Position numbers and translations under genes: made by a program. This document shows, piece by piece, positions 1 through 48,838 of a DNA stretch of 64,000 nucleotides. How positions within the stretch are numbered: position 1 is the first letter of the stretch; each line of letters opens with the position of its first letter. The notes under the pieces are model-generated. The model was given only the letters and a program-made list of their open reading frames with translations. It had not been told where the DNA came from and ran no database searches. Source of the stretch: a phage; assembly GCA_011939005.1 (NCBI GenBank), contig GCA_011939005.1_4858.1, one strand, 5' to 3'.

Positions 1-3000
1 GCCTGGAATAAACTGAATCAGTTCGGTGGCTGGGCGCGCGGTAAAATCGCGGGGATGGGCGGCGGAGAAGGTCCTGGTTTCTTAACCCGGATGCGTGGCC
101 TTATCAGCGGTAGTGTCCGTGGGGGCTTTGAAGCGGTAAGCTCTTTCGGTAAAGGATTGCTGGGTATCCGCGACGTTTACGATGACCACGGTAATGTTGT
201 ACTGCAAGGTGCACGTCTGGAAGCTGGAGAATACTATCAGGTCATTGATGGTAAAATGGTTCAGCTGAAAACGCTGGACGACATCAAACTGGGGAGTGAT
301 ATTGTTGACTCCGCAGGTAATCTGGTATTAGCAGCCGCTGACTTAGCCGCTGCGGGTAAACTCCGCTACTATAAAGGCGGGAAAATCCAAGCACTGACCC
401 AAGGTCTGGCCAGTAAGATTGGCTTAGGCTTTAATAAGGTGGCTAAGCTACCGAAACGGTTCCTGGATTTCCTGTCACCGAAAGCGGGCAGCATCGTTGG
501 TAAGATTAAGGACTGGCTGAACGAGATTCCGGAAGGCGAAGAAAAGACACGTCTCCAGAAAGCGTTCAACCGCGTAACGAGCTTACCGGGTAAAGTGCTC
601 GGTTTTGCGAAACGTGGTGTCGACCGTCTGAAAGACATGATTACCGACAACCCACTGACGCGTTGGTGGAAAGGCCGTAAAGATGGTGGGGGTGGTGGTT
701 TCAGTCTCTTCTCATCAACCGGCAAGAAAACCAACCACATCCTTATCCGTATCTATAAACTGTTGAACCAACGTTTACCGGGCGATCCGGAAGACGAAAG
801 TTGGACAGAAGAAATGGAGAAGGGTGTCGGTGGCGGTGGTAGTACGATCGGCCGTGCAGTTCGCGGGGCGTATAATCGTGCGAAATCGTCGTTGTCTGAA
901 CGTTTTGGTGGACGTTGGTCAAGAACAAAAGCGTTCTTTGGTCGTGGACGTGACCGCCTGCGTGGTTGGTTCAGTGGTTTCCGAGGCCGGGCTGGGGATA
1001 TGCTCGATGGATATCGTGGAGCACGACACGACATTGCTACACGTTACGAAGTTGAACGTCGGTTGGCTGGACGCGATGACGATGTTGCTGAGTTTTATCG
1101 CAGCCATTTGAACGCGAAAGGTGGTCTTTCTGGCCGTAAAGTCTACGGTGACGCGAAGGACGACCTTGAGACCGCGCGCGATGCAGCAGGTCGGGTTATC
1201 AACAAAGGGAAGAATGCTGCCAAGTCTGCAGGTGCAAGGTTATTCGAACGCTTGGACCGAATGATCGGCTTGCAAGAGATGTCATGGTTTAACACCATGC
1301 GCGAATCAGTATCCCGTGCAGGTGGTGACGATGGCATTATTCGTACCATGTTTGCGAAGTTCGGTAAACGTAACAAGCCACCTGAAAGTGATGAAAAACG
1401 CGACTACCTTAACTTCTTCAAACGTTGGCGTGAGAAACGTAAGGAGAAGAAAGAGAAAGCGCAGGGCTCCAAAGGGAAATCTGGCGGTCTGTGGGATATG
1501 GTGAAAGGCTTACCTATCATCGGTCCCATCGTCAGTATCTTGGGAACTGTGGGTAATATACTCGGTTCTATCACGAAATGGGGTGTGTTAAAACCAGTAG
1601 GTCTTTTAGGTAAGGCTGCGTGGAATGTCGGTAAGTTCGCAGTAACCCGTTTGGCGGCACCCGCGGTGTCCGCTGTGGCAACTGCGGCATCTGCCGTCGT
1701 GACAGCAGTGGGCTGGCCGGCAATTCTTATCGGTGGTGCGATCGCCGCGGCTGGTTACGCCGCGTACAGGATTGCAACGACTACCTATACCCAGTACCTG
1801 GATAAGATGCGTTTAGCTCAGTACGGTTTCCGTGATTACGATAAGTGGTCGTCGGACGACGGGGCGAAAGCGCGTTACTTAGAAGACGCATTGCGTGAGT
1901 ATGTGTCTTACGCGGAAGATGGCCAAGCCAGTCTCCGTGGGCTAAGTGGAAAAGACGTTCAGAAGTTAGCTGAAGGGTTCGGTATTAACGTTGAGGAAAA
2001 AGGCGAGATGTTGGCCTTCCAAGCGTTTATGCTTCAGCGCTTTATTCCGATTTATCTCCGCTGGATTACGGCACTGAAGTCAATGCCGAACAGTATCCAG
2101 TTGGCTGACGTCGGCGATGCGAAGAAAGTATCGAAAGAGGACATGCTGACTCTCTTCAACAAAATGAAGATGACTAAGGATGCAAAAGCGTTCTCTTCGT
2201 TAACAGACCCACGCAAAGTCAACCAAGGTTTCTTCTCGAAAGCTTGGGACGTTGTAACCTTTACACCGAAGGAGTTCTTGAGCGGTGAAGAGGTTATGGA
2301 AGTGCAGAATGAAGTCGAGCGTGCAATCAAGTCCAGAATGGACGATAAGAAAGCACGTAAGTACGGAATGGCACCGGCCGTGGAGGGGATTAAGTCCGCG
2401 GGCGTTGATGAAGCTATCAACAAACTTGGACAGTTGGATAACGAACGTAATAAAAATCTGGCGAAGGTAGAAGGTTGGGAAGACGGAACAGAGCAGGTTC
2501 AGATTCAGGTAGACTGGAATGCGGTGCTCGACCAGAAAGACATGAATGCGATGGAATCGGTGCGTTGGAAGACTTACGGCTTTACCACCATCGATAACGC
2601 CACCCGCACTTTGATCACGGTATTCGAGAAGAACGTCATCAAAGACATTGACGTGAAAACCGCAAGCTACAAAGGAGATTGGAAGAAAGCCATCGCCACG
2701 ATGGTTCCAGACGCTATCGGTACACCGAAAGAAGATCGTTTGAAACGGTGGTTCTTTGACCGTTTCTTACCGGTATTCATGACGTATTTGGTTGGGGTGA
2801 AGCGTTACCTGCCAACAGCCGATCCGCTGAACTTGAAACTGACCGGCGGCTACCTGTACGAAATCAGTCTGATGATGTCAACTGCCTACAGCCTGAAAGG
2901 TGGTATAAGACAGTCGGTGTGGGAAGTGAATATCAACCCATTAGGGGGTGAGGCTAACACGAACCCATCATCCATCAAAGCCGAACTGGAAACGCTGAAG

Positions 3001-4578
3001 CTGCTGTCAAAAGAAGCTGACCTTGCCGTGCGTAACATGATTAAAGCCATTAGAAATAATGGCAAGCGTGCGCGCTGGAAGGATCGTAACAAGAACCGCA
3101 GTTCTCTGGAAGTTACCGGTGAGGATGAAGAAGACTCGAACATCAGTTCGGGAGATTCTTTGTCATCTGACGGTGCTCGCGCCTCAGGCTACATTCCATC
3201 GGGTACGAGTGGTGGTGTGCCGGGTAACTTGGGTCAAGTCGTCGATGCGGTTGGTGGTGTGCGGAACTACGCTGCAATGACCACTGGTTCGTCTTCGATT
3301 AACCTGAGTGATGTGAAAGACGGTGATTATAAGTCACTGGCTGAAAAATACCCGATAGAAATGTTGGGTAGAAAGGGTGCGTTGAACGTTCCGAATATCA
3401 AAGCATTGATTACCGATGCGGCGAACATGATGGGCGTGCCACCTGCAGTGGCGTTAGCAATGGCTAAGGCGGAGTCCGGATTTAACTACACCGCTAAAAA
3501 CCCGTATGCTTCGGCGTCTGGGCTGTTCCAGTTCATTGACGGCACGTGGAACGGGATGATGAAGGGGTATTCGCGGAAGTTTGGTATTCCGCGTGTTAAC
3601 CAAATGGACCCGTGGGCGAATGCTATATTGGGTGTACAGTTCATTCGTGACAACATCCAACAAGCACAGCGTGACCTGGGTGGTAAAGCACCACCTCCAG
3701 CCGTGGCTTATCTGTACCACTTCTTGGGTGCAGGCGGCGGTAAGAAGTTCTTGGAAGCATGGAAGCGTAATCCGAATATGGCGGCATCGAGTGCTCCTGG
3801 GATTACATCTGCAATACTGAGAGGGAATGCCAACGTCTTCTACAGCAACGGTCGTATACGTAGCGTAGACGGGGTTATTCAGGAACTGAACCGCCGTATG
3901 GGCGCAATTTCCGCCAACGAAGTCGCTGCCGATCCGAGTAAGACGAAGGATATGGTTGCAGGCTTGTCGCCTAATTCACCAACCAACCCGGCAGCAGCAA
4001 TGGGTGCACCGGCCGCTAATGATCCGAGTCTGTCGCCAGCAGATAACCTGCCAGCAGATAATGCTAATCGTCGTGATGACGCATTGACGCAGAAAGGGGC
4101 CATGGCGGCACAAGATGCAATGGCTACCGCCGCAGGTAATGTAGGACCAGCAGCACCTACACCAACCACAGGCGGTACCGGAACATCCGATGCCTCAACA
4201 ACGGCCGAAACCGTAGCGTCGCAAGCTGCAGCAGAAGGATTGTCTGCGACGGATGTTGCTAAAGTGAAAGCAGGCGCGGAAGCGCAGGTTAACGCAGCAG
4301 CTCGTCCAGTTGCCGCTCCAACTTCTGATGCTACAGCATCGACGCCAACGCTGAATGGTGACCCGATGGATGTTCAGCAGCTCAAGGTACTGATTCAGTC
4401 TCGCGATTACTTGAAAGAGATTCGTGATATTTTGAAATCAAATCCGAGAGCAGCAAACGACACGCGTGGTGGTAGTATCCAGCAAGCGGCAAATGTGGCT
4501 CCTCCGGGCTCAGCTGCACGTAGGCAGGAAATAACCCAACCGACACCGTCGTTAAACGTAAGTCGGAAAGCAAGCTAA
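1..4578 (+). CDS. virion tape-measure-like / ejection protein with lytic transglycosylase (SLT) domain; 5' partial
   Basis: Frame 1 is open from base 1 (first in-window ATG at 55) to TAA at 4576-4578. Gly-rich linkers, hydrophobic helices (about nt 1510-1770), SLT motif ESGFN..AKNPYASASGLFQF..DGTW (about nt 3440-3560), Ala/Pro/Thr-rich linker near the C-terminus. Confidence 0.65.
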   Translation, partial: AWNKLNQFGGWARGKIAGMGGGEGPGFLTRMRGLISGSVRGGFEAVSSFGKGLLGIRDVYDDHGNVVLQGARLEAGEYYQVIDGKMVQLKTLDDIKLGSDIVDSAGNLVLAAADLAAAGKLRYYKGGKIQALTQGLASKIGLGFNKVAKLPKRFLDFLSPKAGSIVGKIKDWLNEIPEGEEKTRLQKAFNRVTSLPGKVLGFAKRGVDRLKDMITDNPLTRWWKGRKDGGGGGFSLFSSTGKKTNHILIRIYKLLNQRLPGDPEDESWTEEMEKGVGGGGSTIGRAVRGAYNRAKSSLSERFGGRWSRTKAFFGRGRDRLRGWFSGFRGRAGDMLDGYRGARHDIATRYEVERRLAGRDDDVAEFYRSHLNAKGGLSGRKVYGDAKDDLETARDAAGRVINKGKNAAKSAGARLFERLDRMIGLQEMSWFNTMRESVSRAGGDDGIIRTMFAKFGKRNKPPESDEKRDYLNFFKRWREKRKEKKEKAQGSKGKSGGLWDMVKGLPIIGPIVSILGTVGNILGSITKWGVLKPVGLLGKAAWNVGKFAVTRLAAPAVSAVATAASAVVTAVGWPAILIGGAIAAAGYAAYRIATTTYTQYLDKMRLAQYGFRDYDKWSSDDGAKARYLEDALREYVSYAEDGQASLRGLSGKDVQKLAEGFGINVEEKGEMLAFQAFMLQRFIPIYLRWITALKSMPNSIQLADVGDAKKVSKEDMLTLFNKMKMTKDAKAFSSLTDPRKVNQGFFSKAWDVVTFTPKEFLSGEEVMEVQNEVERAIKSRMDDKKARKYGMAPAVEGIKSAGVDEAINKLGQLDNERNKNLAKVEGWEDGTEQVQIQVDWNAVLDQKDMNAMESVRWKTYGFTTIDNATRTLITVFEKNVIKDIDVKTASYKGDWKKAIATMVPDAIGTPKEDRLKRWFFDRFLPVFMTYLVGVKRYLPTADPLNLKLTGGYLYEISLMMSTAYSLKGGIRQSVWEVNINPLGGEANTNPSSIKAELETLKLLSKEADLAVRNMIKAIRNNGKRARWKDRNKNRSSLEVTGEDEEDSNISSGDSLSSDGARASGYIPSGTSGGVPGNLGQVVDAVGGVRNYAAMTTGSSSINLSDVKDGDYKSLAEKYPIEMLGRKGALNVPNIKALITDAANMMGVPPAVALAMAKAESGFNYTAKNPYASASGLFQFIDGTWNGMMKGYSRKFGIPRVNQMDPWANAILGVQFIRDNIQQAQRDLGGKAPPPAVAYLYHFLGAGGGKKFLEAWKRNPNMAASSAPGITSAILRGNANVFYSNGRIRSVDGVIQELNRRMGAISANEVAADPSKTKDMVAGLSPNSPTNPAAAMGAPAANDPSLSPADNLPADNANRRDDALTQKGAMAAQDAMATAAGNVGPAAPTPTTGGTGTSDASTTAETVASQAAAEGLSATDVAKVKAGAEAQVNAAARPVAAPTSDATASTPTLNGDPMDVQQLKVLIQSRDYLKEIRDILKSNPRAANDTRGGSIQQAANVAPPGSAARRQEITQPTPSLNVSRKAS

Positions 4579-18117: not shown

Positions 18118-18193
18118 AGGTGTTATCCTATTATGAGATGTTGTCTCGGATAGATAATATCTGTCTGAGTTCTTTTTGAGATGAGGTTATCCC
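18118..18193. promoter_or_regulatory. divergent intergenic region carrying motif TAGATAATATCTGTCTGAG
   Basis: 76-bp gap between divergently oriented genes; contains near-palindromic AT-rich motif (18151-18169) shared with two other intergenic sites. Confidence 0.4.
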
Positions 18194-26685: not shown

Positions 26686-26704
26686 TAGATAATATCTATC
26701 TCAG
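26686..26704. promoter_or_regulatory. conserved AT-rich near-palindromic motif (candidate promoter element)
   Basis: TAGATAATATCTATCTCAG; 13-bp core TAGATA-A-TATCTA is palindromic around its centre; lies between a stop codon and the next RBS. Confidence 0.4.
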
Positions 26705-26705
26705 A

Positions 26706-29769: not shown

Positions 29770-30249
29770 TCATTGCACAAGGCAACTACTTTTGTGCCGT
29801 TCGTAGGCACGATTAAAAGACTCTCTGTCTTCGCGATAGCCGCGAATGAGAGACTTAATCTGTCGTGACAAATCACGACTAATGTCTTGAGGGCTACGAG
29901 AACCAGGGTCGAGATATATCCCGGAGGGTATACCATGAAGAGTGGGGCGAATAAACTCTTCACAAAGCGGTGCGGTCATCGGGGTGTGCCACCCTTTAGC
30001 TTCTGCATAGTTGTTTACTGACTTAGCGTACAGATAAACGTAATAAGCATAAGCGTTCACATCCGCAACAAACATTTTCCCTGCCAGCTTTTTCGCCTCA
30101 GGACTGTTCCCACCGTTATATACTGGTGGGTGTTCTAAAGGACGAAAAGGCCAATCTCCGGTTGAGGAGTAATCTGGGTCTACGTGACGGATGACCCCAG
30201 GGCATCCTGTCAACAATAGCACCAGTATCGCCACCAAAAATAACTTCAT
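29770..30249 (-). CDS. putative lipoprotein
   Basis: 159 aa; N-terminus MKLFLVAILVLLLTGC has signal peptide with lipobox LTGC; ATG with RBS gaggag overlapping end of upstream gene. Confidence 0.55.
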   Translation of the reverse strand: MKLFLVAILVLLLTGCPGVIRHVDPDYSSTGDWPFRPLEHPPVYNGGNSPEAKKLAGKMFVADVNAYAYYVYLYAKSVNNYAEAKGWHTPMTAPLCEEFIRPTLHGIPSGIYLDPGSRSPQDISRDLSRQIKSLIRGYREDRESFNRAYERHKSSCLVQ

Positions 30250-30258
30250 GTATGCTCC

Positions 30259-30768
30259 TCATGGATTATTAAGCGTCTTGATAATCTCCTGTCGGAAATC
30301 GTTTGCCGCCTGCGACCCCACTGGGCGAGAAGCCGCCTGGTGTTTCTTGGCAGGCGGGCTAGACGGATTTAACGGTGCCTGTGGTGTTACCGGCTTGAGT
30401 TCTTCAGGCGGAACCGCGGCCCCAGTGCCTGTCCCTGTTGGAGATTTGGTACCATCATATGGCGATCGAGAACCCAGGCATGTGAAGAGACGATCGTACA
30501 GCTTATTGTTCTCCACTTCGCCATGATCGGACTTCTCTTTTAGCTCCTTATAGGATATCTCCAGATACTGAGTACGCGATTGGACGCTAACCAGTGTGTG
30601 GTATTGAACAATATAGGCATATGAGACAAATGCAGAGAACGCGACCAGTGCCACTATCACTAGTGTCACTATCTTCCCGGCTCGTGTTACTTTCTCCCCC
30701 TCGCCCGGTTTAAATGCTTCCCACAGCATCTGTAAGAATGGAAGCAGTTTGAAAACTGATGCTATCAT
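30259..30768 (-). CDS. membrane protein with Pro-rich C-terminal region
   Basis: Track start 30774 is GTG; ATG at 30768 has RBS gaggtg. Transmembrane segment IVTLVIVALVAFSAFVSYAYIV, then Pro-rich tail. Confidence 0.5.
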   Translation of the reverse strand: MIASVFKLLPFLQMLWEAFKPGEGEKVTRAGKIVTLVIVALVAFSAFVSYAYIVQYHTLVSVQSRTQYLEISYKELKEKSDHGEVENNKLYDRLFTCLGSRSPYDGTKSPTGTGTGAAVPPEELKPVTPQAPLNPSSPPAKKHQAASRPVGSQAANDFRQEIIKTLNNP

Positions 30769-32806: not shown

Positions 32807-32860
32807 AGAAAAAAAGAACTACCTACTCCCTTGGGAGTAGGTAGGCTTTTATTTTTTATC
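32805..32860. terminator. bidirectional rho-independent terminator
   Basis: Stem ctacctactccc / gggagtaggtag (32819-32844) flanked by A-run and gcttttattttttatc. Confidence 0.7.
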
Positions 32861-32863
32861 GCA

Positions 32864-33997
32864 TTATTTACCGATGATATCACGGACCATTGCTTTGATT
32901 GTGGCAGCAGTACGTTTCTTTTTCGGCAGCTTGCGGATTTCTGCGTACAGTTTATCCAGGTTCAGCGTTTTCTGTACCTGCGCAACAATCTGCATTTGCT
33001 CTTCGTCGATCTTCACTTCGACGGTTTGTTCCTGCATTTTGCCCAGTTCCTGAATCACACTGGCAACCGACACCGGATAAGCTGTTGATTTTGGACGTTC
33101 GATACCGAGGGTAACAAAGATTTCGTCGTCAATAAACACATTTTCGATATCAGCCAAGTTTTCCAGAATGATTTCATCGTGGTCTTCATCTTCTGACGCA
33201 TTCGGGTATGGACGTTTGTAGGTGTAATCCCACACGTCATAACCGAGTTTATCTGCGAGTTGTACGAAACCTTCCCAGGTTACTTCGCCGGGGTTGATAG
33301 TCTGACCACGGAAACCAGGGTTGGCCGTAAAGACTTTCACCCAGTCGATGTTCGCGATGGTGCGACACTCTTCCAGCGGCGCGTAGCGATCTCCCACTTC
33401 GTCATTGTCAGGCTCTTCAACATGCACTGCTTCGCAACGCTCGAAAGTGACTGAGTGTGGTTTACCGTCACCGAAGATAACGGAGGCAGCACGCCAGTCT
33501 TCGATAGTCCACTGAACATGAGTCAATTCAATGTAACAATGCCCAACTTTAACACGACCATGTGGGGCACTTACTGGTTTAATCAGCTCACCTGGTTCGA
33601 AGAAGAATTCGTCAGAATGTGCAATGGCATACCAGACACCATCAACACCTTCAACGAGAATAGACCAGTTATAAGGCGCGTGGCAATTTTGGAAAGCTAC
33701 GCCCAGCATACTTCCCCAACGGTCATCTGGCGAATATTTCAGTGGCGGCAGGTTATCAAACTGAAGAGTTTGAGAAGAAAGGCACAACTTATTACGCAGG
33801 TGCGGCAGCGGCAGATAAGCCTCCACATTGTTATCGACCAGCGCATTGTAAAGATCCGGGTTGATAACACCGGTGCCAGTGACGTGTTGTGCAATCAGAG
33901 CTTCTGAATATGCACGAATACCTTCGTAGCTAAGCACATACGCACGGTCACGTACTACACGAGCCATATCTTCGATTACGGAAATTGGAAATTTCAT
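32864..33997 (-). CDS. hypothetical protein
   Basis: Track start 34021 is TTG; first ATG at 33997 has RBS aagga. No motif recognised. Confidence 0.55.
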   Translation of the reverse strand: MKFPISVIEDMARVVRDRAYVLSYEGIRAYSEALIAQHVTGTGVINPDLYNALVDNNVEAYLPLPHLRNKLCLSSQTLQFDNLPPLKYSPDDRWGSMLGVAFQNCHAPYNWSILVEGVDGVWYAIAHSDEFFFEPGELIKPVSAPHGRVKVGHCYIELTHVQWTIEDWRAASVIFGDGKPHSVTFERCEAVHVEEPDNDEVGDRYAPLEECRTIANIDWVKVFTANPGFRGQTINPGEVTWEGFVQLADKLGYDVWDYTYKRPYPNASEDEDHDEIILENLADIENVFIDDEIFVTLGIERPKSTAYPVSVASVIQELGKMQEQTVEVKIDEEQMQIVAQVQKTLNLDKLYAEIRKLPKKKRTAATIKAMVRDIIGK

Positions 33998-34057
33998 GTT
34001 AATAGTCCTTATAAAAGTCAATGGTATTTTCAGATGATTAGTTACTGCTGTAAAAAA

Positions 34058-34288
34058 CTAGTTACGGTCGGAATTAAAGACGTGCCAGGTACTACGCCAG
34101 CGAAAGAATCGGGTCATGAAACCACGCACGTGGTAGCCTGAGAACAACATCCAGATGGCAAGAAAGAGTTGCGCCCATGGGGACGTGAGTTCCATCAGAT
34201 GTGCGACAATCGCACCGATTACCAACATTACCGTGGAGAATAGCAAACCGTACATCATCGGAATGTTGTGGCTATAGCGTTTCTCCAT
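34058..34288 (-). CDS. small two-helix membrane protein (holin-like topology)
   Basis: Two hydrophobic helices (GLLFSTVMLVIGAIVAHL; WAQLFLAIWMLFSGY) and basic C-terminus. Track start 34324 is GTG; first ATG at 34288; start uncertain. Confidence 0.4.
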   Translation of the reverse strand: MEKRYSHNIPMMYGLLFSTVMLVIGAIVAHLMELTSPWAQLFLAIWMLFSGYHVRGFMTRFFRWRSTWHVFNSDRN

Positions 34289-34334
34289 CCAGTAGAGAAA
34301 ATTTATTAAACGTTTCACGAGCACACATCCAAGA

Positions 34335-34371
34335 ATTAAATAAAAGGCGGTCAGACCCGAAGGTCTGACCG
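34335..34371 (-). terminator. rho-independent terminator (UUCG loop on minus transcript)
   Basis: Stem cggtcagacc / ggtctgaccg with loop cgaa (34348-34371), A-rich run upstream on plus strand. Confidence 0.6.
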
Positions 34372-34375
34372 TTAA

Positions 34376-34969
34376 TTACGCTTCGGCCTCAAAGAACGGC
34401 TGGTTCGGTACCACTGCATATTCGAGCACGAAAAGATGTTCTGGGGCATCTTCTGCTCGCCACAGTTTGTGACACGTTGCCAGTTTTTCCAGGATGGTCA
34501 ACCAGCTGAGCTGGCAGAAAGCACGGTCGCCGAAGAACAGTTTCTGCAGTGCAATCGACACATCCATATACGCCTGTTTGAAGTCGAGTTCTTTATCGTA
34601 ACCCGCCGACTGTCGCCACGTCAGCACGAAACCTGCTTCGGTTTCGTTAATTGCTGGACGTAAACCACAAATCCACATCAGCGCCAGATTAACGTTCCAG
34701 TCGAATTCGATACCTTCGTCTTCGTCATCACCAAACGCCGCGTTTAACGCATCGTAGAAACCGTGGTTCTCTGCGAACCATTCGCCATACTCAACGTATA
34801 CCGGTGCTTCGACAGCTTCCCCATCGACTTCACCGATAGGACGCTCTACATAGTTCGGGTTGGTTTGAACGTGTTCCGCACCCGCGCGAATTAATTCGTA
34901 GACATCTTTGGCGGTGATTTGTGCGGCTGTTTTAAGACCTGGATACCAGGGGCGTGTTACGAGTGTCAA
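34376..34969 (-). CDS. hypothetical protein (apparent TTG start)
   Basis: 197 aa; no in-frame ATG/GTG near the 5' end; TTG at 34969 has strong RBS aaggag and overlaps upstream stop by 4 nt. Confidence 0.5.
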   Translation of the reverse strand: MTLVTRPWYPGLKTAAQITAKDVYELIRAGAEHVQTNPNYVERPIGEVDGEAVEAPVYVEYGEWFAENHGFYDALNAAFGDDEDEGIEFDWNVNLALMWICGLRPAINETEAGFVLTWRQSAGYDKELDFKQAYMDVSIALQKLFFGDRAFCQLSWLTILEKLATCHKLWRAEDAPEHLFVLEYAVVPNQPFFEAEA

Positions 34970-35688
34970 AGCAATGCTCCTTTCATGATAGTGTTATTTG
35001 CCAGTAGTGTACCGGCCGCAGGTGATATTTTGGTGTACAGCGTATCCCAGATTTTCTGAAGCTCAGCGACGCGTTGGTCGCGGTCTTCCTTCGCAAAAGC
35101 AAGCTGACGTGTTTCAGCTTTCGGTGGCGTCATTTTCGCACCGTAGAATGCTGCGTCTTTTCGGTAGCTGGCCATCCAGCGTTTCCCGACCGATGATTTC
35201 TTTTTAATCATCGCAACAGCAGCGCTCTCACCGAAGCGGTAGCCTAATGCGATTTCGGCTGTGCTCGGCTTGCGTTTGAGTTGTTTTGTCAGATGATCCT
35301 CGATGTGTTTCATGTAAACAGCAGCAAGCTGTACAGCATATTTCGGTTTATTAAGGTCTGCGTTCTTTGGGATGTTAAGTTGTTTCCCATACAGACGTAT
35401 CATGGAGCGTTTAGTGCCTGTCGTCATTTGGACAACACTACTAGCACTGCTCGATTTATTCTTACCCACGTTTTTATTAAAACGGGATTCGCGGTAAATG
35501 GTGGTCGCAAGCATCCCGGCATGTACACCTTGCTTTTGAGATGCAGAGACGATGAGAGGTTTAATCTCATTGAACTGGTCCTGGATAAGGACGAATTCTT
35601 TTTGGTGTTTGTTACTGGTGGTCTGGTAAGAAGCGTTGCTGTTGAATGTGGTCACTGCTACCAGAAGAAATAAAATGGTGCGAAACAT
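34966..35688 (-). CDS. secreted lytic transglycosylase-like protein (candidate endolysin)
   Basis: 240 aa; N-terminal signal peptide MFRTILFLLVAVTTFNSNA; ESRFNKNVGKNKSSSASSVVQMTTGT aligns with the SLT motif of the large virion protein at 1-4578. Confidence 0.55.
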   Translation of the reverse strand: MFRTILFLLVAVTTFNSNASYQTTSNKHQKEFVLIQDQFNEIKPLIVSASQKQGVHAGMLATTIYRESRFNKNVGKNKSSSASSVVQMTTGTKRSMIRLYGKQLNIPKNADLNKPKYAVQLAAVYMKHIEDHLTKQLKRKPSTAEIALGYRFGESAAVAMIKKKSSVGKRWMASYRKDAAFYGAKMTPPKAETRQLAFAKEDRDQRVAELQKIWDTLYTKISPAAGTLLANNTIMKGALL

Positions 35689-35779
35689 GGATGTATCTCC
35701 AAACGGATTTATACTTTTCCGTTCCCAATCCGGGAAGACGGCGCGGACGGCATTGTGCTCCTTTGTAATGTGCCCTGAT

Positions 35780-35791
35780 GATAATATCTAT
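35780..35791. promoter_or_regulatory. conserved motif GATAATATCTAT (third copy)
   Basis: Exact 12-mer also at 26688-26699; overlaps the stop codon of the gene at 35788-36288 and lies upstream of the secreted SLT gene. Confidence 0.35.
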
Positions 35792-36288
35792 TTGAAACTT
35801 TTTGGGATGATTTTCTCTGCTTCCCTCAGCAGGGTGTCCGGTAAATAGAATCGATAAGTCTGCTCCGTGTGCTGTAGTCTTTTCTGTAAGTGTATAAAGA
35901 TTTCCAATCGCTCATGGTAACGTAACCAACCGTTAGCCATCCCTAGGGGCGGTATCGCAATCCCTCCTTCTAAGTCTTCCCCTAGTCGCGCCAGCGCATC
36001 AATGCCGGACGTGACATAGTAAATCTGCGATTTATAGCGAAAATGGGTTTTAGTAGGAAGGAGTATTACCCCTTCCTCAGGATAACAATAGACCTCACCG
36101 ATAACGATTTGCTCTTTACGACATTTCTGGCGATAGTCATTATAAAGCGATGGGAAGCGTTCTCGGCACGCCAAAGCAATGCCCCTTCCCATTGCACCAA
36201 CACAGTTAACTGTAACGACCTTGAAGCGCTCAGGCGCGTTAAACAGGTCGTGGGAGATAATAGCCTCGTCGATCAGTTCTAGTGACAT
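35788..36288 (-). CDS. putative macro-domain (ADP-ribose-binding/processing) protein
   Basis: 166 aa; VVTVNCVGAMGRGIALACRER resembles the macro N-terminal Gly-rich motif and IAIPPLGMANGWL resembles the C-terminal phosphate-binding loop. Motif-level only. Confidence 0.45.
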   Translation of the reverse strand: MSLELIDEAIISHDLFNAPERFKVVTVNCVGAMGRGIALACRERFPSLYNDYRQKCRKEQIVIGEVYCYPEEGVILLPTKTHFRYKSQIYYVTSGIDALARLGEDLEGGIAIPPLGMANGWLRYHERLEIFIHLQKRLQHTEQTYRFYLPDTLLREAEKIIPKSFK

Positions 36289-36487
36289 CTATTGCCATAC
36301 CCCATTGTGAAATAACCGGAGACTGAAGCAACGATTCCAGCTCAGTAAGAACTCTGGCTTTTGCTTCTTCGCGCAACTTACGGACTTCCGGATCGGGTTT
36401 ACCTGCGCCTAAATATTGGGGTTCTGTTTGTGGGGTAGGGAAACCACAGAAAGAACTAACCATTATTCCGATGATTGTTTTTTGCAT
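36239..36487 (-). CDS. small hypothetical protein
   Basis: 82-aa ORF, ATG with RBS aaaggaa; 3' end overlaps the next gene by 50 nt. Confidence 0.35.
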   Translation of the reverse strand: MQKTIIGIMVSSFCGFPTPQTEPQYLGAGKPDPEVRKLREEAKARVLTELESLLQSPVISQWGMAIDVTRTDRRGYYLPRPV

Positions 36488-36910
36488 TTAGCTATTCCTT
36501 TTCACCCAGGTTTGTACCGCTGACTCGAAACCTTCGTGTTCGATACCGAGTCGTTTCATTGCCAACATAGTGTTGAGGCTATTCGTAATTTCTTCACGGT
36601 AGCAATGGTCGTCCATCTTACGCCAACACTTCTCCGGGTCAACACCTAAGCGTTGGAGTAGATACGCCTCACGCACCATACCAGGCCGCCAGAATTTAGG
36701 GCGGGTAATCGCGATTTCAATCATGGGTGTCATGTCCAACGTGTGCGCGAGAATACTAACCGGCGTTTCCCCAACTTTATCACGTAACGCTAAACGTAAC
36801 CACCACTGAACGTTTGCTTTGGTTTCAGGTAACAGATCGTAGAATAAGGCTGTTTCTTCTTCTGATAAATGATCGTATAGTGATTTTGTTTCGCGAATAG
36901 CGGTAACCAT
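36488..36910 (-). CDS. hypothetical protein
   Basis: 140-aa ORF, ATG start. Confidence 0.5.
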   Translation of the reverse strand: MVTAIRETKSLYDHLSEEETALFYDLLPETKANVQWWLRLALRDKVGETPVSILAHTLDMTPMIEIAITRPKFWRPGMVREAYLLQRLGVDPEKCWRKMDDHCYREEITNSLNTMLAMKRLGIEHEGFESAVQTWVKRNS

Positions 36911-36928
36911 TTTAATGCTCCTTTAGAT

Positions 36929-37447
36929 TTAATCAATCTCGCGTTTAGGGCTCCTGTGAAACTTCACTTCAGGATTATCCTTAAATGTTTCCCAGATAAG
37001 GGACGCACCACCAAGCTCTTTGGTTTTCGTGGTGCGCAAGTGTGAGTCGCCGAGCATAACAGCACAACGTCCTTTTGCCATATACTTTTTAATTTTTTCA
37101 ACCATTTTAGCTTCACGAATATAAAAAGAACGGCTAAAGTTTACAGCCATTCCCTTTTTATCCTTGATATCTTTAGCGTAGGTTGCATCGCTCCAGTCAT
37201 CGATCCCAATAGCAGGGATGCCGAGTTTCTTAGCCAACTCCAGCCCCATGGGCCCAATAGAGTACATCTTCTCCTTTAATGCCTTATCTTGCGCTTTTGC
37301 AGTGTGATATTCATACGGCCCCAGTTCTTCACACAGTAAAAAATCGTATGGTTTTTTCCGATGGTTATCGATGATCGCCCATTCAACACGATTACGATCG
37401 GCCGTGGTATGAATTTCCCCATATATGTCAACACGAATGTCCGTCAT
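36929..37447 (-). CDS. hypothetical protein
   Basis: 172-aa ORF, ATG start. Confidence 0.5.
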   Translation of the reverse strand: MTDIRVDIYGEIHTTADRNRVEWAIIDNHRKKPYDFLLCEELGPYEYHTAKAQDKALKEKMYSIGPMGLELAKKLGIPAIGIDDWSDATYAKDIKDKKGMAVNFSRSFYIREAKMVEKIKKYMAKGRCAVMLGDSHLRTTKTKELGGASLIWETFKDNPEVKFHRSPKREID

Positions 37448-38655: not shown

Positions 38656-38763
38656 TTAAAACCAACCTTGCATCAATGCAAGGATTGCGCCTAGGGCGTA
38701 TGCGCCCGCTCCTAGTATCAGGCTACAGACGATACACCCAACCCTTTTCACTAAAATAACCAT
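38656..38763 (-). CDS. tiny hydrophobic peptide (35 aa)
   Basis: Hand-translated MVILVKRVGCIVCSLILGAGAYALGAILALMQGWF; below ORF-track size cutoff; overlaps next tiny ORF (ATG inside the upstream stop region). Confidence 0.3.
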   Translation of the reverse strand: MVILVKRVGCIVCSLILGAGAYALGAILALMQGWF

Positions 38764-38882
38764 GTTGCTACAAACGCTCCGATTGCGCAAATGATAAGCG
38801 TGATACCAACATCTGTCCATGTGGCACCGTCATACGCACCTGTTGCAATCATGGCTGCGTTGACACTATTCACGACTGTCAT
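38751..38882 (-). CDS. tiny hydrophobic peptide (43 aa)
   Basis: Hand-translated MTVVNSVNAAMIATGAYDGATWTDVGITLIICAIGAFVATWLF; below ORF-track size cutoff. Confidence 0.3.
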   Translation of the reverse strand: MTVVNSVNAAMIATGAYDGATWTDVGITLIICAIGAFVATWLF

Positions 38883-39069
38883 AAGCCGGGTCCCTTAAAC
38901 GCGGGGGCTTGCTCCACAGATTACCGAAGTAAACCCCTTCTAAGAACACCAAAACAACTAAGCCCCAAAAGGCAGGCGTAGCGCGAGACATGAAAATACC
39001 GAGTAGCACCACAGTGTGCATTACCACAACTGCCCAAAACTTTAAACGACCAGGTTTACGTCTTGCCAT
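38866..39069 (-). CDS. small membrane protein
   Basis: Track start 39114 is GTG; ATG at 39069 has RBS aaggatgg. Two hydrophobic helices. Confidence 0.4.
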   Translation of the reverse strand: MARRKPGRLKFWAVVVMHTVVLLGIFMSRATPAFWGLVVLVFLEGVYFGNLWSKPPRLRDPAYDSRE

Positions 39070-39156
39070 GGAATGCCCATCCTTTCGTGCGGATAATCCA
39101 ACCCCAGGCACCACGAATCAACCACAGTGCAATACCGGTTAATACGATACCTTCAA

Positions 39157-39348
39157 TCATGTCCGTTCTCCTATATCTCGCCACTCACAACGCGTGTCGA
39201 ACAGACGTTCTTTAAGAGCAGCAGCTAAATAAACGACCGCAGCGATAACCACTACGGTTGCACAAAAGGAGAGGTACAGTACCATCACAACAAACTGAAG
39301 GAACTGAAAACCCCACCAAGCCCATAAGCGCCAACCTTTATGATGCAT
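39157..39348 (-). CDS. small membrane protein
   Basis: 63 aa, Trp-rich N-terminus and one hydrophobic helix (VVMVLYLSFCATVVVIAAVVYLAAAL); start overlaps the stop of the Rad50-like gene. Confidence 0.45.
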   Translation of the reverse strand: MHHKGWRLWAWWGFQFLQFVVMVLYLSFCATVVVIAAVVYLAAALKERLFDTRCEWRDIGERT

Positions 39349-43255: not shown

Positions 43256-43639
43256 TTACTGGTCGAGCGCTATTGAACCACGCACTTCGCCTTGTTGTTC
43301 AATAACCAGGAGGCGCTGTTTGGTTTTCGTATTGTAAGCGAGCGACGCGCGAAGCGTCGGGTCGCACGTTATTGTCTCTACCGGCACAATCTCTTGTGCC
43401 TTTGAGTTCAACAGAAAGTAGTAACCTGCCGGACAAGTTTCCTCGCCCTTTGCGTGGACTAGGATGTACTCGTCGTGCCGGCTGACTTCTTCACATCTAC
43501 CATCGTCGCCAGTACAGACTTCGAATGAAGGCGGGTTGTACTGATACGGTGTGCCCGGCAGTAAATCTTCTACGCTGGTTGTAGCTGAAGCGGAAGCGGT
43601 CAAGAACACCGCCGCGATAATACCCATAAATCCACGCAT
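43256..43639 (-). CDS. secreted Cys-containing protein (paralog family member 1)
   Basis: 127 aa; signal peptide MRGFMGIIAAVFLTASASA; motif ETCPAGYY; ATG with RBS aaggaaa. Confidence 0.5.
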   Translation of the reverse strand: MRGFMGIIAAVFLTASASATTSVEDLLPGTPYQYNPPSFEVCTGDDGRCEEVSRHDEYILVHAKGEETCPAGYYFLLNSKAQEIVPVETITCDPTLRASLAYNTKTKQRLLVIEQQGEVRGSIALDQ

Positions 43640-43652
43640 GTTGTTTCCTTAC

Positions 43653-44063
43653 TTAAAAGTCGAGTTTATTGATGCCTACGTTTTTCTTAATCGTAGGGTC
43701 GTACATGATAACCGTCAGGGCATTGTCGCCTGGGTCGCGAGTAAACTCGGCAACGGCTTCACCACTGCAGGCTTGGTTATCATTATAGTTCATGGATTCG
43801 GCTTGCCCGGTTGCCATGTTAATAACCCCGTATTCAGGGTCGCCACATGCGACACCGCCCATCGTTTTCACTAACAGGTAACGGTTGTTATCGGACATCG
43901 CAACGATCTGGCAGCTACCGCCTTGTACGTCAGAGTTCTGGCACCAGAACTGTCCGCCGTATTCGTGATCGTTAACAACTTTTGGTAACTCGATACTTCC
44001 AGCGCGAGCGAAGAAGCTAATGGCCAGAGTAGCAAGTAAAACTGGTAATAAAAAATGTTTCAT
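43653..44063 (-). CDS. secreted Cys-containing protein (paralog family member 2)
   Basis: 136 aa; signal peptide MKHFLLPVLLATLAISFFARA; motif VACGDPEY; RBS gaggtg. Confidence 0.5.
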   Translation of the reverse strand: MKHFLLPVLLATLAISFFARAGSIELPKVVNDHEYGGQFWCQNSDVQGGSCQIVAMSDNNRYLLVKTMGGVACGDPEYGVINMATGQAESMNYNDNQACSGEAVAEFTRDPGDNALTVIMYDPTIKKNVGINKLDF

Positions 44064-44085
44064 AATAGCACCTCAATTTTTTGAG

Positions 44086-44577
44086 TTATTCTGAATAGTC
44101 GATTGTTTTGATGGTTTCCATACCGTAGTACATAGCGATGGAGGCCAGAGTTTTGGTATCAGGTCGCTGTACAAAACCGGCCCTGAAATCTTTGCTGCAA
44201 ATTTTCTCCACTGATAGTTCATCACGATTAGGGATAAGCCATAACGCGTCACCGTTGTGACGGTCGACTGCACCCCACCAACCACCTGGGCAATCTTTAT
44301 CGCCCGGACGGTGTACGATAGCGACACGTCCGTTGAAGGATATGTCAACTACACGACACTGTTTCTTAAGCAGCTTACGCGCATTGCACCAGAACGGCTT
44401 ATCATTAAGATTGATGGTGCGGGTATATGCTGGAATGCTGCCGTTAATACTGCCCTGGAACCCGCTGAATTCGTCAGCGCGTGCCTTAGAAATCCGTAGC
44501 CCAACAACAACTGCCATCAACAGCACAGTAAAAAGCACCACCTTAATCAGGTGGTGATTAACGTTATTGCATTTCAT
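44086..44577 (-). CDS. secreted Cys-containing protein (paralog family member 3)
   Basis: ATG at 44577 (RBS ggaga) gives N-terminus MKCNNVNHHLIKVVLFTVLLMAVVVGL; motif KDCPGGWW. Confidence 0.5.
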   Translation of the reverse strand: MKCNNVNHHLIKVVLFTVLLMAVVVGLRISKARADEFSGFQGSINGSIPAYTRTINLNDKPFWCNARKLLKKQCRVVDISFNGRVAIVHRPGDKDCPGGWWGAVDRHNGDALWLIPNRDELSVEKICSKDFRAGFVQRPDTKTLASIAMYYGMETIKTIDYSE

Positions 44578-44965
44578 TTTTGATATCTCCACGAATGAGG
44601 GTGATGCGACCAACGAGCACATCGTTGTGATAAAAACTCACAGCAACCAGATCTGGCAATTCCAACGGCGATACGCTGACCGAAGTGACTTTTGGTTGAT
44701 CGCACGATATGTCGATTAATCGCTGATACATTTTCAGTTTCTTATCAGCGATAACCAGCCCTGTGCAGTTCTTACCATCCGTCAGTTTGTAGATTTGTAA
44801 CTGTTCGACCTCACGCATCAGTTCCGGTTTTTCATTCGGTGCAATGCCATAATCCGAATCAGCTGATGTGTATTCAGTCACGTCTGGCTTATCGAAAGCA
44901 TAAGTTGCTGCGATACCACATGCGGCCAGAACTACTACTGCTTGTAAGAACTTCTTGATAGTCAT
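44564..44965 (-). CDS. putative lipoprotein (paralog family member 4)
   Basis: 133 aa; signal peptide with lipobox VVLAACG; motif KNCTGLVI. Confidence 0.5.
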   Translation of the reverse strand: MTIKKFLQAVVVLAACGIAATYAFDKPDVTEYTSADSDYGIAPNEKPELMREVEQLQIYKLTDGKNCTGLVIADKKLKMYQRLIDISCDQPKVTSVSVSPLELPDLVAVSFYHNDVLVGRITLIRGDIKNEMQ

Positions 44966-48717: not shown

Positions 48718-48838
48718 TTGGTATTTCCTTTTAAAGTACACTAAAGTGACCAAAAAATGTTACTAAAGAACAGTTGGTGTTTAAGCGACTGTGGGTTTAT
48801 ACACAATGCTCACTAAGATGACATCTATCTGTAAAAAC

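Follow-up and report, generated by a model that had tools for sequence, protein, structure and literature searches.

The 64,000-nt stretch analyzed here (contig GCA_011939005.1_4858.1 of assembly GCA_011939005.1; hereafter the window, at its full length) comes from an SPN3US-like jumbo phage of the genus Seoulvirus, a giant, nucleus-forming Salmonella phage, and its positions 33000-37000 were 98.0-98.6% identical to the Salmonella phages JN03, EC001, and SPN3US. Our subject is a group of minus-strand genes at 34058-35688, for which a sequence-only reading of the window had proposed a lysis cassette made up of a secreted enzyme with an SLT domain, a 197-aa protein, and a holin-like membrane protein. 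All of the open reading frames (ORFs) and features described in that reading were recovered from the sequence, and its interpretation stood in part: the SLT domain and the export signal held up and the view of the membrane protein as holin-like gained support, while the idea of a single cassette did not survive.

The three genes have SPN3US gp198, gp199, and gp200 as their homologs, with gp201 next. The locus runs from a macro-domain gene through the SLT gene, whose product is predicted to be exported, the gp199-like gene, a slot that can hold small membrane-protein genes, and the gp201-like gene to two virion genes on the opposite strand, and this order was kept in four phages of three genera (Seoulvirus, Wellingtonvirus, and Machinavirus). 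The macro-domain gene itself (35788-36288, minus strand; ADP-ribose-binding or -processing) adjoins the SLT gene upstream in Seoulvirus, Machinavirus, Wellingtonvirus, and Derbicusvirus.

The system is of a known kind and its SLT enzyme was already annotated. GenBank has carried gp198 as a "putative endolysin" since the SPN3US deposition, RefSeq labels it "transglycosylase", and the supplement of Thomas et al. 2016 entered it as a homolog of the phiKZ endolysin, gp144 (PMC5105663). Both gp199 and gp200 are labeled hypothetical in SPN3US, and the gp200-like ORF is conserved yet unannotated in many related GenBank records (JN03, EC001, several SPFM phages, and SPLA phages). In the literature searched, we found nothing on the SPN3US lysis genes beyond annotation, and nothing comparable to the work on the phiKZ cassette.

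The SLT enzyme and its signal peptide

The SLT gene (34966-35688, minus strand) encodes a 240-aa protein that begins MFRTILFLLVAVTTFNSNA|SYQ, with a signal peptide at residues 1-19 and a predicted catalytic Glu67. As the sequence-only reading had anticipated, the protein matched the Pfam SLT family (PF01464; residues 46-167) above the gathering cut-off (28.3 versus 21.3 bits), and PF01464 is listed among precomputed Pfam assignments for six of the seven full-length homologs in its cluster. A sequence search of solved structures returned phiKZ gp144 only (3BKH; 9XPS chain S; E = 5e-7). Glu67-Ser68 aligned with Glu115-Ser116 of gp144, the former of which we take to be its catalytic residue, and both positions were invariant in seven homologs. 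In the AlphaFold2 model, the core (residues 30-190) had predicted local distance difference test (pLDDT) values of ~70-90, and the last ~50 residues were of low confidence. Foldseek placed this core closest to gp144 (3BKH), followed by MltE, Slt, MltF, and g-type lysozymes (probability 0.97-1.0), and the model has the all-helical, lysozyme-like fold of these enzymes. Judged by sequence and predicted fold, the gp198-like protein is a genuine SLT/GH23 lytic transglycosylase, homologous to the catalytic domain of phiKZ gp144, and the SLT endolysin of SPN3US-like phages was most likely inherited from a phiKZ-like ancestor.

The motif ESRFN...SSASSVVQM of this protein had been thought to recur in a large virion protein of the same phage, and BLASTP recovered the similarity (E = 1e-7), pairing ESRFN with ESGFN and SASSVVQ with SASGLFQ. 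The SLT domain of the large protein, encoded at 55-4578 on the plus strand, occupies residues 1118-1206. This SLT-bearing tail protein corresponds to SPN3US gp239, the 1507-aa ORF being its C-terminal part because the window begins inside the gene; gp239 is the tape measure protein according to Thomas et al. (PMC5105663) and a "tail fiber protein" according to RefSeq. The common motif raises the question of whether the gp198-like protein is itself a virion-associated lysin that acts at entry, as does the fact that chain S of the 2026 phiKZ neck structure (PDB 9XPS) is the endolysin gp144, making the phiKZ homolog a virion component as well. We regard this as highly improbable: the SPN3US virion mass-spectrometry table includes gp193, gp202, and gp203 and excludes gp198-gp201 (Thomas et al. 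2016, PMC5105663), as would suit a non-structural muralytic protein, and a Sec signal peptide would take the SLT protein out of the cytoplasm, where virions assemble.

The N-terminus reads MFR, then TILFLLVAVTTF, then NSNA|S, with residues 1-19 encoded at 35632-35688 and cleavage predicted at SNA|S (between Ala19 and Ser20). By inspection, it consists of a basic n-region, a strongly hydrophobic 12-residue h-region, and small residues at -3 and -1. Comparable signal peptides were kept in eight homologs across several genera. Those of pEa_SNUABM_29, Kwan, Machina, ChrisDB, Moabite, Joad, and Phobos, with identity falling as low as ~27%, were compared in detail, and the equivalents of the cleavage site in these seven homologs were VHA|S, AQA|S, AAA|I, AHA|S, ATA|S, ALA|S, and VFA|S. 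Because such divergent homologs keep this kind of signal, small residues at both -3 and -1 included, we favor real, cleaved Sec export, by which the enzyme would be both secreted and processed. The Pfam match, the homology to gp144, and the conserved n-h-c signal agree with the original description of a signal-peptide protein with an SLT domain. The predicted cleavable signal peptide stands where gp144 has its N-terminal peptidoglycan-binding domain.

We also considered whether the N-terminus could be that of a signal-anchor-release (SAR) endolysin, and rejected this: SAR proteins have a long, weakly hydrophobic, Gly/Ala/Ser-rich, uncleaved anchor, whereas in the gp198-like protein the h-region is short and strongly hydrophobic and leads into an AxA-type cleavage site that is conserved. 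The locus does resemble SAR endolysin-pinholin systems (phage 21 R/S21-68 and phiKMV gp45) in that export would proceed without a large-hole holin and in the presence of a small two-helix protein, predicted to be N-in/C-in, as a possible partner. Another point of comparison is Lys44 of the Oenococcus phage fOg44, a Sec-exported endolysin with a signal peptide. The gp198-like enzyme shares with Lys44 a cleavable signal peptide, and with it the implied export before lysis and activation on de-energizing of the membrane, but it comes from a phage with a Gram-negative host and is a lytic transglycosylase, and its export and activation are predictions.

A predicted early-type promoter, the leader, and a second endolysin candidate

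A predicted early promoter of the virion RNA polymerase type lies upstream of the SLT gene at 35774-35793 on the minus strand (AAATAGATATTAT-N6-G, with the presumed start G at 35774), where it overlaps the stop codon of the macro-domain gene. The exact 10-mer AGATATTATC was found three times on the minus strand of the window, and every copy shortly precedes a gene on that strand; with one mismatch allowed there were 10 sites, a number reached by none of 100 shuffles. A broader family of promoter-like motifs, roughly cAGATAGATATTATCT-N4-G, comprised minus-strand sites at 35774-35793, 26688-26705, and 18153-18170, alongside weaker ones at 48834 and 45065. The SPN3US genome had 28 related sites that exceeded the scan threshold. 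One strand carried 24 of these, and several stood 30-45 nt ahead of start codons, including that of an RNA polymerase subunit gene. Early promoters of phiKZ have the same strand bias and leaders of 31-40 nt. The promoter 13-mer agreed at 12 of 13 positions with the experimentally defined AR9 early consensus AAATATATATTAT-(6N)-G+1, as quoted in PMC5312081; the same source describes the promoters that virion polymerases use throughout the phiKZ-like phages as extended and AT-rich, and puts the start 6 nt downstream of them for the two phages that were studied. The element upstream of the SLT gene was kept in pEa_SNUABM_29, Machina, and ChrisDB and was looser in Kwan and Phobos. We infer that the SLT and gp199-like genes form an early operon whose leader, at ~86 nt, is unusually long.

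Within this leader lies a 14-codon upstream ORF (MPSAPSSRIGNGKV; 35709-35753, minus strand) with AAGGAG five bases upstream. The ORF and the strong ribosome-binding site ascribed to it were present, and AGGAG was kept in all seven sequences compared, but the start codon was not conserved: its position reads ATG, TAG, TGG, TTG, or TCG across relatives, though the flanking DNA is conserved, and the ORF was found only in the window phage and SPN3US. It is probably not a conserved coding unit. The leader also contains a hairpin (35719-35741, minus strand) between the invariant flanks GCGCCGT...ACGGAAAAG, for which RNAalifold, applied to five phages, gave 14 pairs, five with compensatory changes. 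A stable structure of the single leader sequence was not supported, since it folded no better than shuffles (z = 0.38), leaving this small covarying hairpin. The lysozyme gene e of phage T4 is transcribed early, with a leader hairpin holding its translation off. The SLT gene is similar in standing behind an early-type promoter with a conserved leader hairpin; the T4 hairpin blocks translation, whereas that of the SLT leader is predicted from covariation, and no late promoter was identified for the SLT gene.

The promoter bears on an alternative role for the enzyme, namely that the exported SLT protein is an early periplasmic wall remodeler, which might slacken the sacculus to let the infected cell enlarge around the phage nucleus, say, or change the wall against superinfection, while the true endolysin is a soluble GH108 enzyme, gp156, released by another holin. 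An early-type promoter with the expected N6-G spacing and conservation in relatives would suit this role, and a cleavable signal peptide makes a holin needless for export of the SLT enzyme. The GH108 enzyme is encoded outside the window (SPN3US 135425-136042; "endolysin" in RefSeq) and is soluble and signal-less, with GH108 (E = 2e-18) and PG_binding_3 (E = 4e-19) domains. It belongs to a PHROG "endolysin" family, is related to the NCBIfam "holin-associated N-acetylmuramidase", and falls among the GH108 endolysins of the coliphage N4 gp61 type, which are unrelated to the gp198-like SLT gene. Its identity was 31% to the N4 N-acetylmuramidase and ~66% to annotated endolysins of the 150-kb Certrevirus phages, the latter value suggesting that the gp156 gene was acquired horizontally. 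The enzyme is conserved in Seoulvirus, Machinavirus, and Wellingtonvirus, and the virion mass-spectrometry table, in the interval from gp155 to gp160, has no entry for it (PMC5105663). It is followed in SPN3US by two tiny ORFs, one encoding a 33-aa cationic protein (PHROG 25143) and the other a 30-aa one-helix protein, and one-helix ORFs were also present in Kwan. A canonical endolysin-holin pair elsewhere in the genome would speak against a lysis cassette in the window; what we found amounts to half of one, a GH108 endolysin accompanied by tiny one-helix ORFs.

Other observations make the remodeling role harder to sustain. T4 lysozyme is likewise transcribed early, the 30-37 aa ORFs by the GH108 gene are shorter than the holins we are familiar with, the stretches of Moabite and Joad that we examined showed no further small wall hydrolase, and the annotators of Moabite named its SLT gene "endolysin". 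The GH108 gene lies inside a tail-fiber module, adjoining the gene for a virion protein (gp158), and the phiKZ homolog of the SLT enzyme, gp144, is an experimentally supported endolysin (PMC12894885). On balance, we consider it rather unlikely that the SLT enzyme is a remodeler and gp156 the true endolysin, and we lean slightly towards the gp198-like enzyme taking part in host lysis. Of the secreted transglycosylase endolysin put forward in the sequence-only reading, the SLT domain and export signal stand, and the role as endolysin is weakened by the GH108 enzyme.

The surroundings of gp156 form a "muralytic island" within the tail-fiber module (SPN3US NC_027402.1 135425-137497), consisting of gp156, the two tiny ORFs, gp157 (a DUF1353 protein), and gp158 (an M15-like protein), the last of which was found in SPN3US virions by Thomas et al. 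(PMC5105663). Compared with SPN3US, the phages Kwan, Machina, and ChrisDB carry this module in the opposite orientation.

The gp199-like partner, the terminator, and the membrane-protein slot

The gp199-like gene (34376-34969, minus strand) encodes an acidic cytoplasmic protein of 197 aa and is co-translated with the SLT enzyme, its TTG start overlapping the SLT stop codon (TTGA) and being preceded by AAGGAG. This start, which had been assigned from the sequence, was corroborated by the N-termini of homologs (M-x-[IL]-V-x-x-x-W-Y), eighteen of which begin at the same position. The protein is strongly conserved and has neither membrane helix nor signal, and its family is very narrow, with 24 clusters in 5.8 billion proteins and seven representatives in a full profile search. 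Its model was confident (pLDDT 85.7), yet structure searches gave no fold relative. From its position, as with phiKZ gp143, one might guess that gp199 is a regulator of export or lysis.

An intrinsic terminator (34338-34371, minus strand; 10-bp stem, TTCG loop, and T-run) lies between the gp199-like and gp200-like genes. It was kept in five phages, with compensatory changes in the stem, and the membrane-protein genes of the slot, where present, always stood behind a terminator. Because this conserved terminator follows gp199, SLT-gp199 and gp200-gp201 are separate units or are joined by read-through only, which contradicts the single lysis cassette first proposed. The gp201-like gene (32864-33997, minus strand; 377 aa from the ATG at 33997) is co-oriented with gp200 and syntenic in relatives, and encodes a conserved protein that falls in PHROG 11818 (function unknown) and had no Pfam match. 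A bidirectional terminator at 32819-32844 closes both the gp200-gp201 unit and the convergent gp202-like gene.

The gp200-like gene (34058-34324, minus strand) is an 88-aa ORF, with a probable start at the GTG at 34318, favored by homologs including that of pEa_SNUABM_29, that would give a protein of 86 aa. Hydropathy analysis agreed with the small two-helix membrane protein with a basic C-terminus that had been described: there are two hydrophobic helices, an N-terminus with four basic residues and one acidic residue, and a C-terminal tail with a net charge of +4. By the positive-inside rule, the predicted topology is N-in/C-in, and together with the two helices and the basic tail it would fit class II holins and pinholins. 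Its homologs were confined to Seoulvirus-like phages plus pEa_SNUABM_29, STsAS, and SPAsTU (39-41% identity). The best Pfam match, to DUF4231, was set aside as below cut-off and probably compositional (19.8 bits versus a cut-off of 24.7), and a relationship to the phiKZ holin gp142 was rejected because the two did not align.

The content of the slot varied among relatives, the Erwinia phages among them having zero to two two-helix proteins there. It held one two-helix protein in SPN3US-like phages and in ChrisDB, two in pEa_SNUABM_29, Machina, and Kwan (one of the latter unannotated), and none in Phobos, and there was none nearby in Moabite. At least three unrelated families are represented among these proteins, and none of them matches a described holin family. 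By analogy, holins and antiholins typically show such turnover of unrelated two-helix proteins beside a muralytic gene that is itself conserved, and it is this turnover that strengthens the holin-like interpretation of gp200, while the lack of a holin-family match weakens it.

An account that would dispense with a holin at this position is that gp200 is a lineage-specific small membrane protein, such as a host-takeover or exclusion factor, that lies near the SLT gene by chance, with the holin encoded elsewhere. The extremely narrow gp200 family without a holin-model match, its transcription unit separated by the terminator, and the empty slot in Phobos and Moabite are all consistent with this, as is the make-up of the window, where ~4 of ~80 genes encode small membrane proteins without a signal peptide and three of these cluster on the same strand at 38751-39348. 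It sits less well with the differing two-helix proteins that fill the slot in Kwan, Machina, ChrisDB, and pEa_SNUABM_29, or with the predicted topology and basic tail of gp200. We view the chance-neighbor account as a substantial possibility, if short of probable, and put forward gp200 tentatively, at somewhat below an even chance, as a holin, pinholin, or antiholin. The clustered ORFs (43, 67, and 63 aa; 38751-39348, minus strand) lie just downstream of an SMC-like gene and are alternative holin candidates; a similar run of tiny genes was seen in ChrisDB and Machina.

A spanin-like pair and a proposed organization of lysis

Further candidates for lysis functions lie 4 kb downstream, ~2 kb beyond the end of gp201. 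The gp204-like gene (30259-30768, minus strand) encodes an i-spanin-like protein with an amphipathic N-terminus, one transmembrane helix, and a charged, Pro-rich periplasmic part, and the gp205-like gene (29770-30249, minus strand), starting 9 nt after it, encodes an o-spanin-like lipoprotein (MKLFLVAILVLLLTGC|P). A lipobox scan identified LLTGC with Pro at +2 in the latter; its lipobox Cys16 and two further Cys were invariant in four phages, and the alignment of gp204 from five phages likewise had an invariant Cys. The arrangement of a transmembrane-protein gene followed by a lipoprotein gene, as in spanins, was kept in four to five phages, with a 4-nt overlap in Kwan, and nowhere else in the SPN3US genome did such a pair occur. 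The conserved N-terminus suggests that the start of SPN3US gp204 has been annotated too short. Neither protein matched a spanin family, and both fall in PHROGs of unknown function. In phiKZ, gp156.1/gp156 have the same architecture and synteny as gp204/gp205, and Thomas et al. listed phiKZ ORF156 as a homolog of gp205 (PMC5105663). We rejected a relationship of gp204 to the phiKZ i-spanin gp141 (E = 1.1). The gp204/gp205 pair may be spanins, although we stop short of calling this probable.

An ORF at 36239-36487 (MQKTIIGIMVSSFC...) was dismissed as a lipoprotein or o-spanin, having a poor lipobox and, in its pEa_SNUABM_29 homolog, a long N-terminal extension. At 43256-44965 (minus strand) lie four genes in a row whose products are small and exported: two have signal peptides, a third has an N-terminal helix, and the remaining one is a lipoprotein (lipobox LAAC). 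These are probably paralogs, because their PHROG families, of unknown function, cross-match.

The lysis cassette of phiKZ, gp141-gp144, was experimentally defined in 2026 and contains the endolysin gp144, the validated spanins gp141/141.1, the holin gp142, and the cytoplasmic lysis regulator gp143, located between holin and endolysin (Manohar et al., PMC12894885). Both phiKZ and the phage of the window are nucleus-forming jumbo phages, their SLT catalytic domains are homologous with the catalytic Glu aligned, and in both a cytoplasmic protein is encoded between the endolysin gene and a membrane-protein gene. The window locus differs in that gene order relative to transcription is reversed, a terminator divides the genes, and gp200 has two helices where the phiKZ membrane protein has one; gp144, moreover, is also found in the virion neck (9XPS), whereas gp198 is absent from the SPN3US virion table. 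Searches of the whole SPN3US genome by tblastn with phiKZ gp141-143 and gp156/156.1 gave nothing significant. A five-gene cassette of the phiKZ type was rejected, as the catalytic domain of the endolysin is alone in being homologous and a terminator and two opposite-strand virion genes split the locus.

We propose a scheme in which the SLT enzyme would be exported by Sec ahead of lysis, processed at Ala19|Ser20, and held waiting in the periplasm, the energized cell not being lysed. A small membrane protein would then collapse the membrane potential and unleash the enzyme. The best-placed trigger would be gp200, which is transcribed separately behind the terminator and might act in the manner of a class II holin or pinholin, and the gp204/gp205-like pair of membrane protein and lipoprotein would disrupt the outer membrane. 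Several observations weigh against this scheme. The Seoulvirus enzymes carry Ala at the position of gp144 Tyr197, where other relatives retain Tyr; an early-type promoter motif on the SLT operon is unexpected for an endolysin; and the clade encodes a second, canonical soluble GH108 muramidase. The conserved terminator splits SLT-gp199 from gp200-gp201; gp200 matched no holin family (no Pfam match above cut-off, no PHROG, and no NCBIfam); Phobos and Moabite carry the exported SLT enzyme with no membrane protein beside it; and three further small membrane ORFs lie at 38751-39348. No SPN3US homologs of phiKZ gp141, 141.1, 142, or 143 were detected; gp199 had no similarity to gp143 by sequence, profile search, or predicted viral structure search; and in phiKZ it is gp141/141.1 that have been validated as spanins, not gp156.1/gp156, the counterpart of gp204/205. 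Taking these together with the evidence above, we place at just under an even chance the likeliest of the readings considered, that the region is part of a loosely organized lysis locus of an SPN3US-like nucleus-forming jumbo phage.

The lysis genes of jumbo phages are poorly mapped, and SPN3US is the genetic model of their enterobacterial branch. For this branch, the present analysis offers as candidates an exported endolysin, a possible holin that is often unannotated, a spanin-like pair, and a rival soluble endolysin; both the mature SLT enzyme (residues 20-240) and the GH108 protein are candidate enzybiotics. Points of modest interest are that a signal peptide has taken the place of a binding domain, that the promoter is of a predicted early type, and that the partner gp199 is an orphan. 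A bolder reading, which we think improbable, is that in the enterobacterial nucleus-forming jumbo phages the gp144-type endolysin has become an early, Sec-secreted transglycosylase, paired with the novel-fold gp199 and under control of a conserved leader hairpin, and the horizontally acquired GH108 enzyme serves as the classical, holin-dependent endolysin. If true, these phages would run two wall-degrading programs that differ in timing and export route, the secreted one perhaps being non-lytic and remodeling the wall around the phage nucleus. Should the exported SLT enzyme really be early, the view of lysis timing or wall remodeling in nucleus-forming phages would change.

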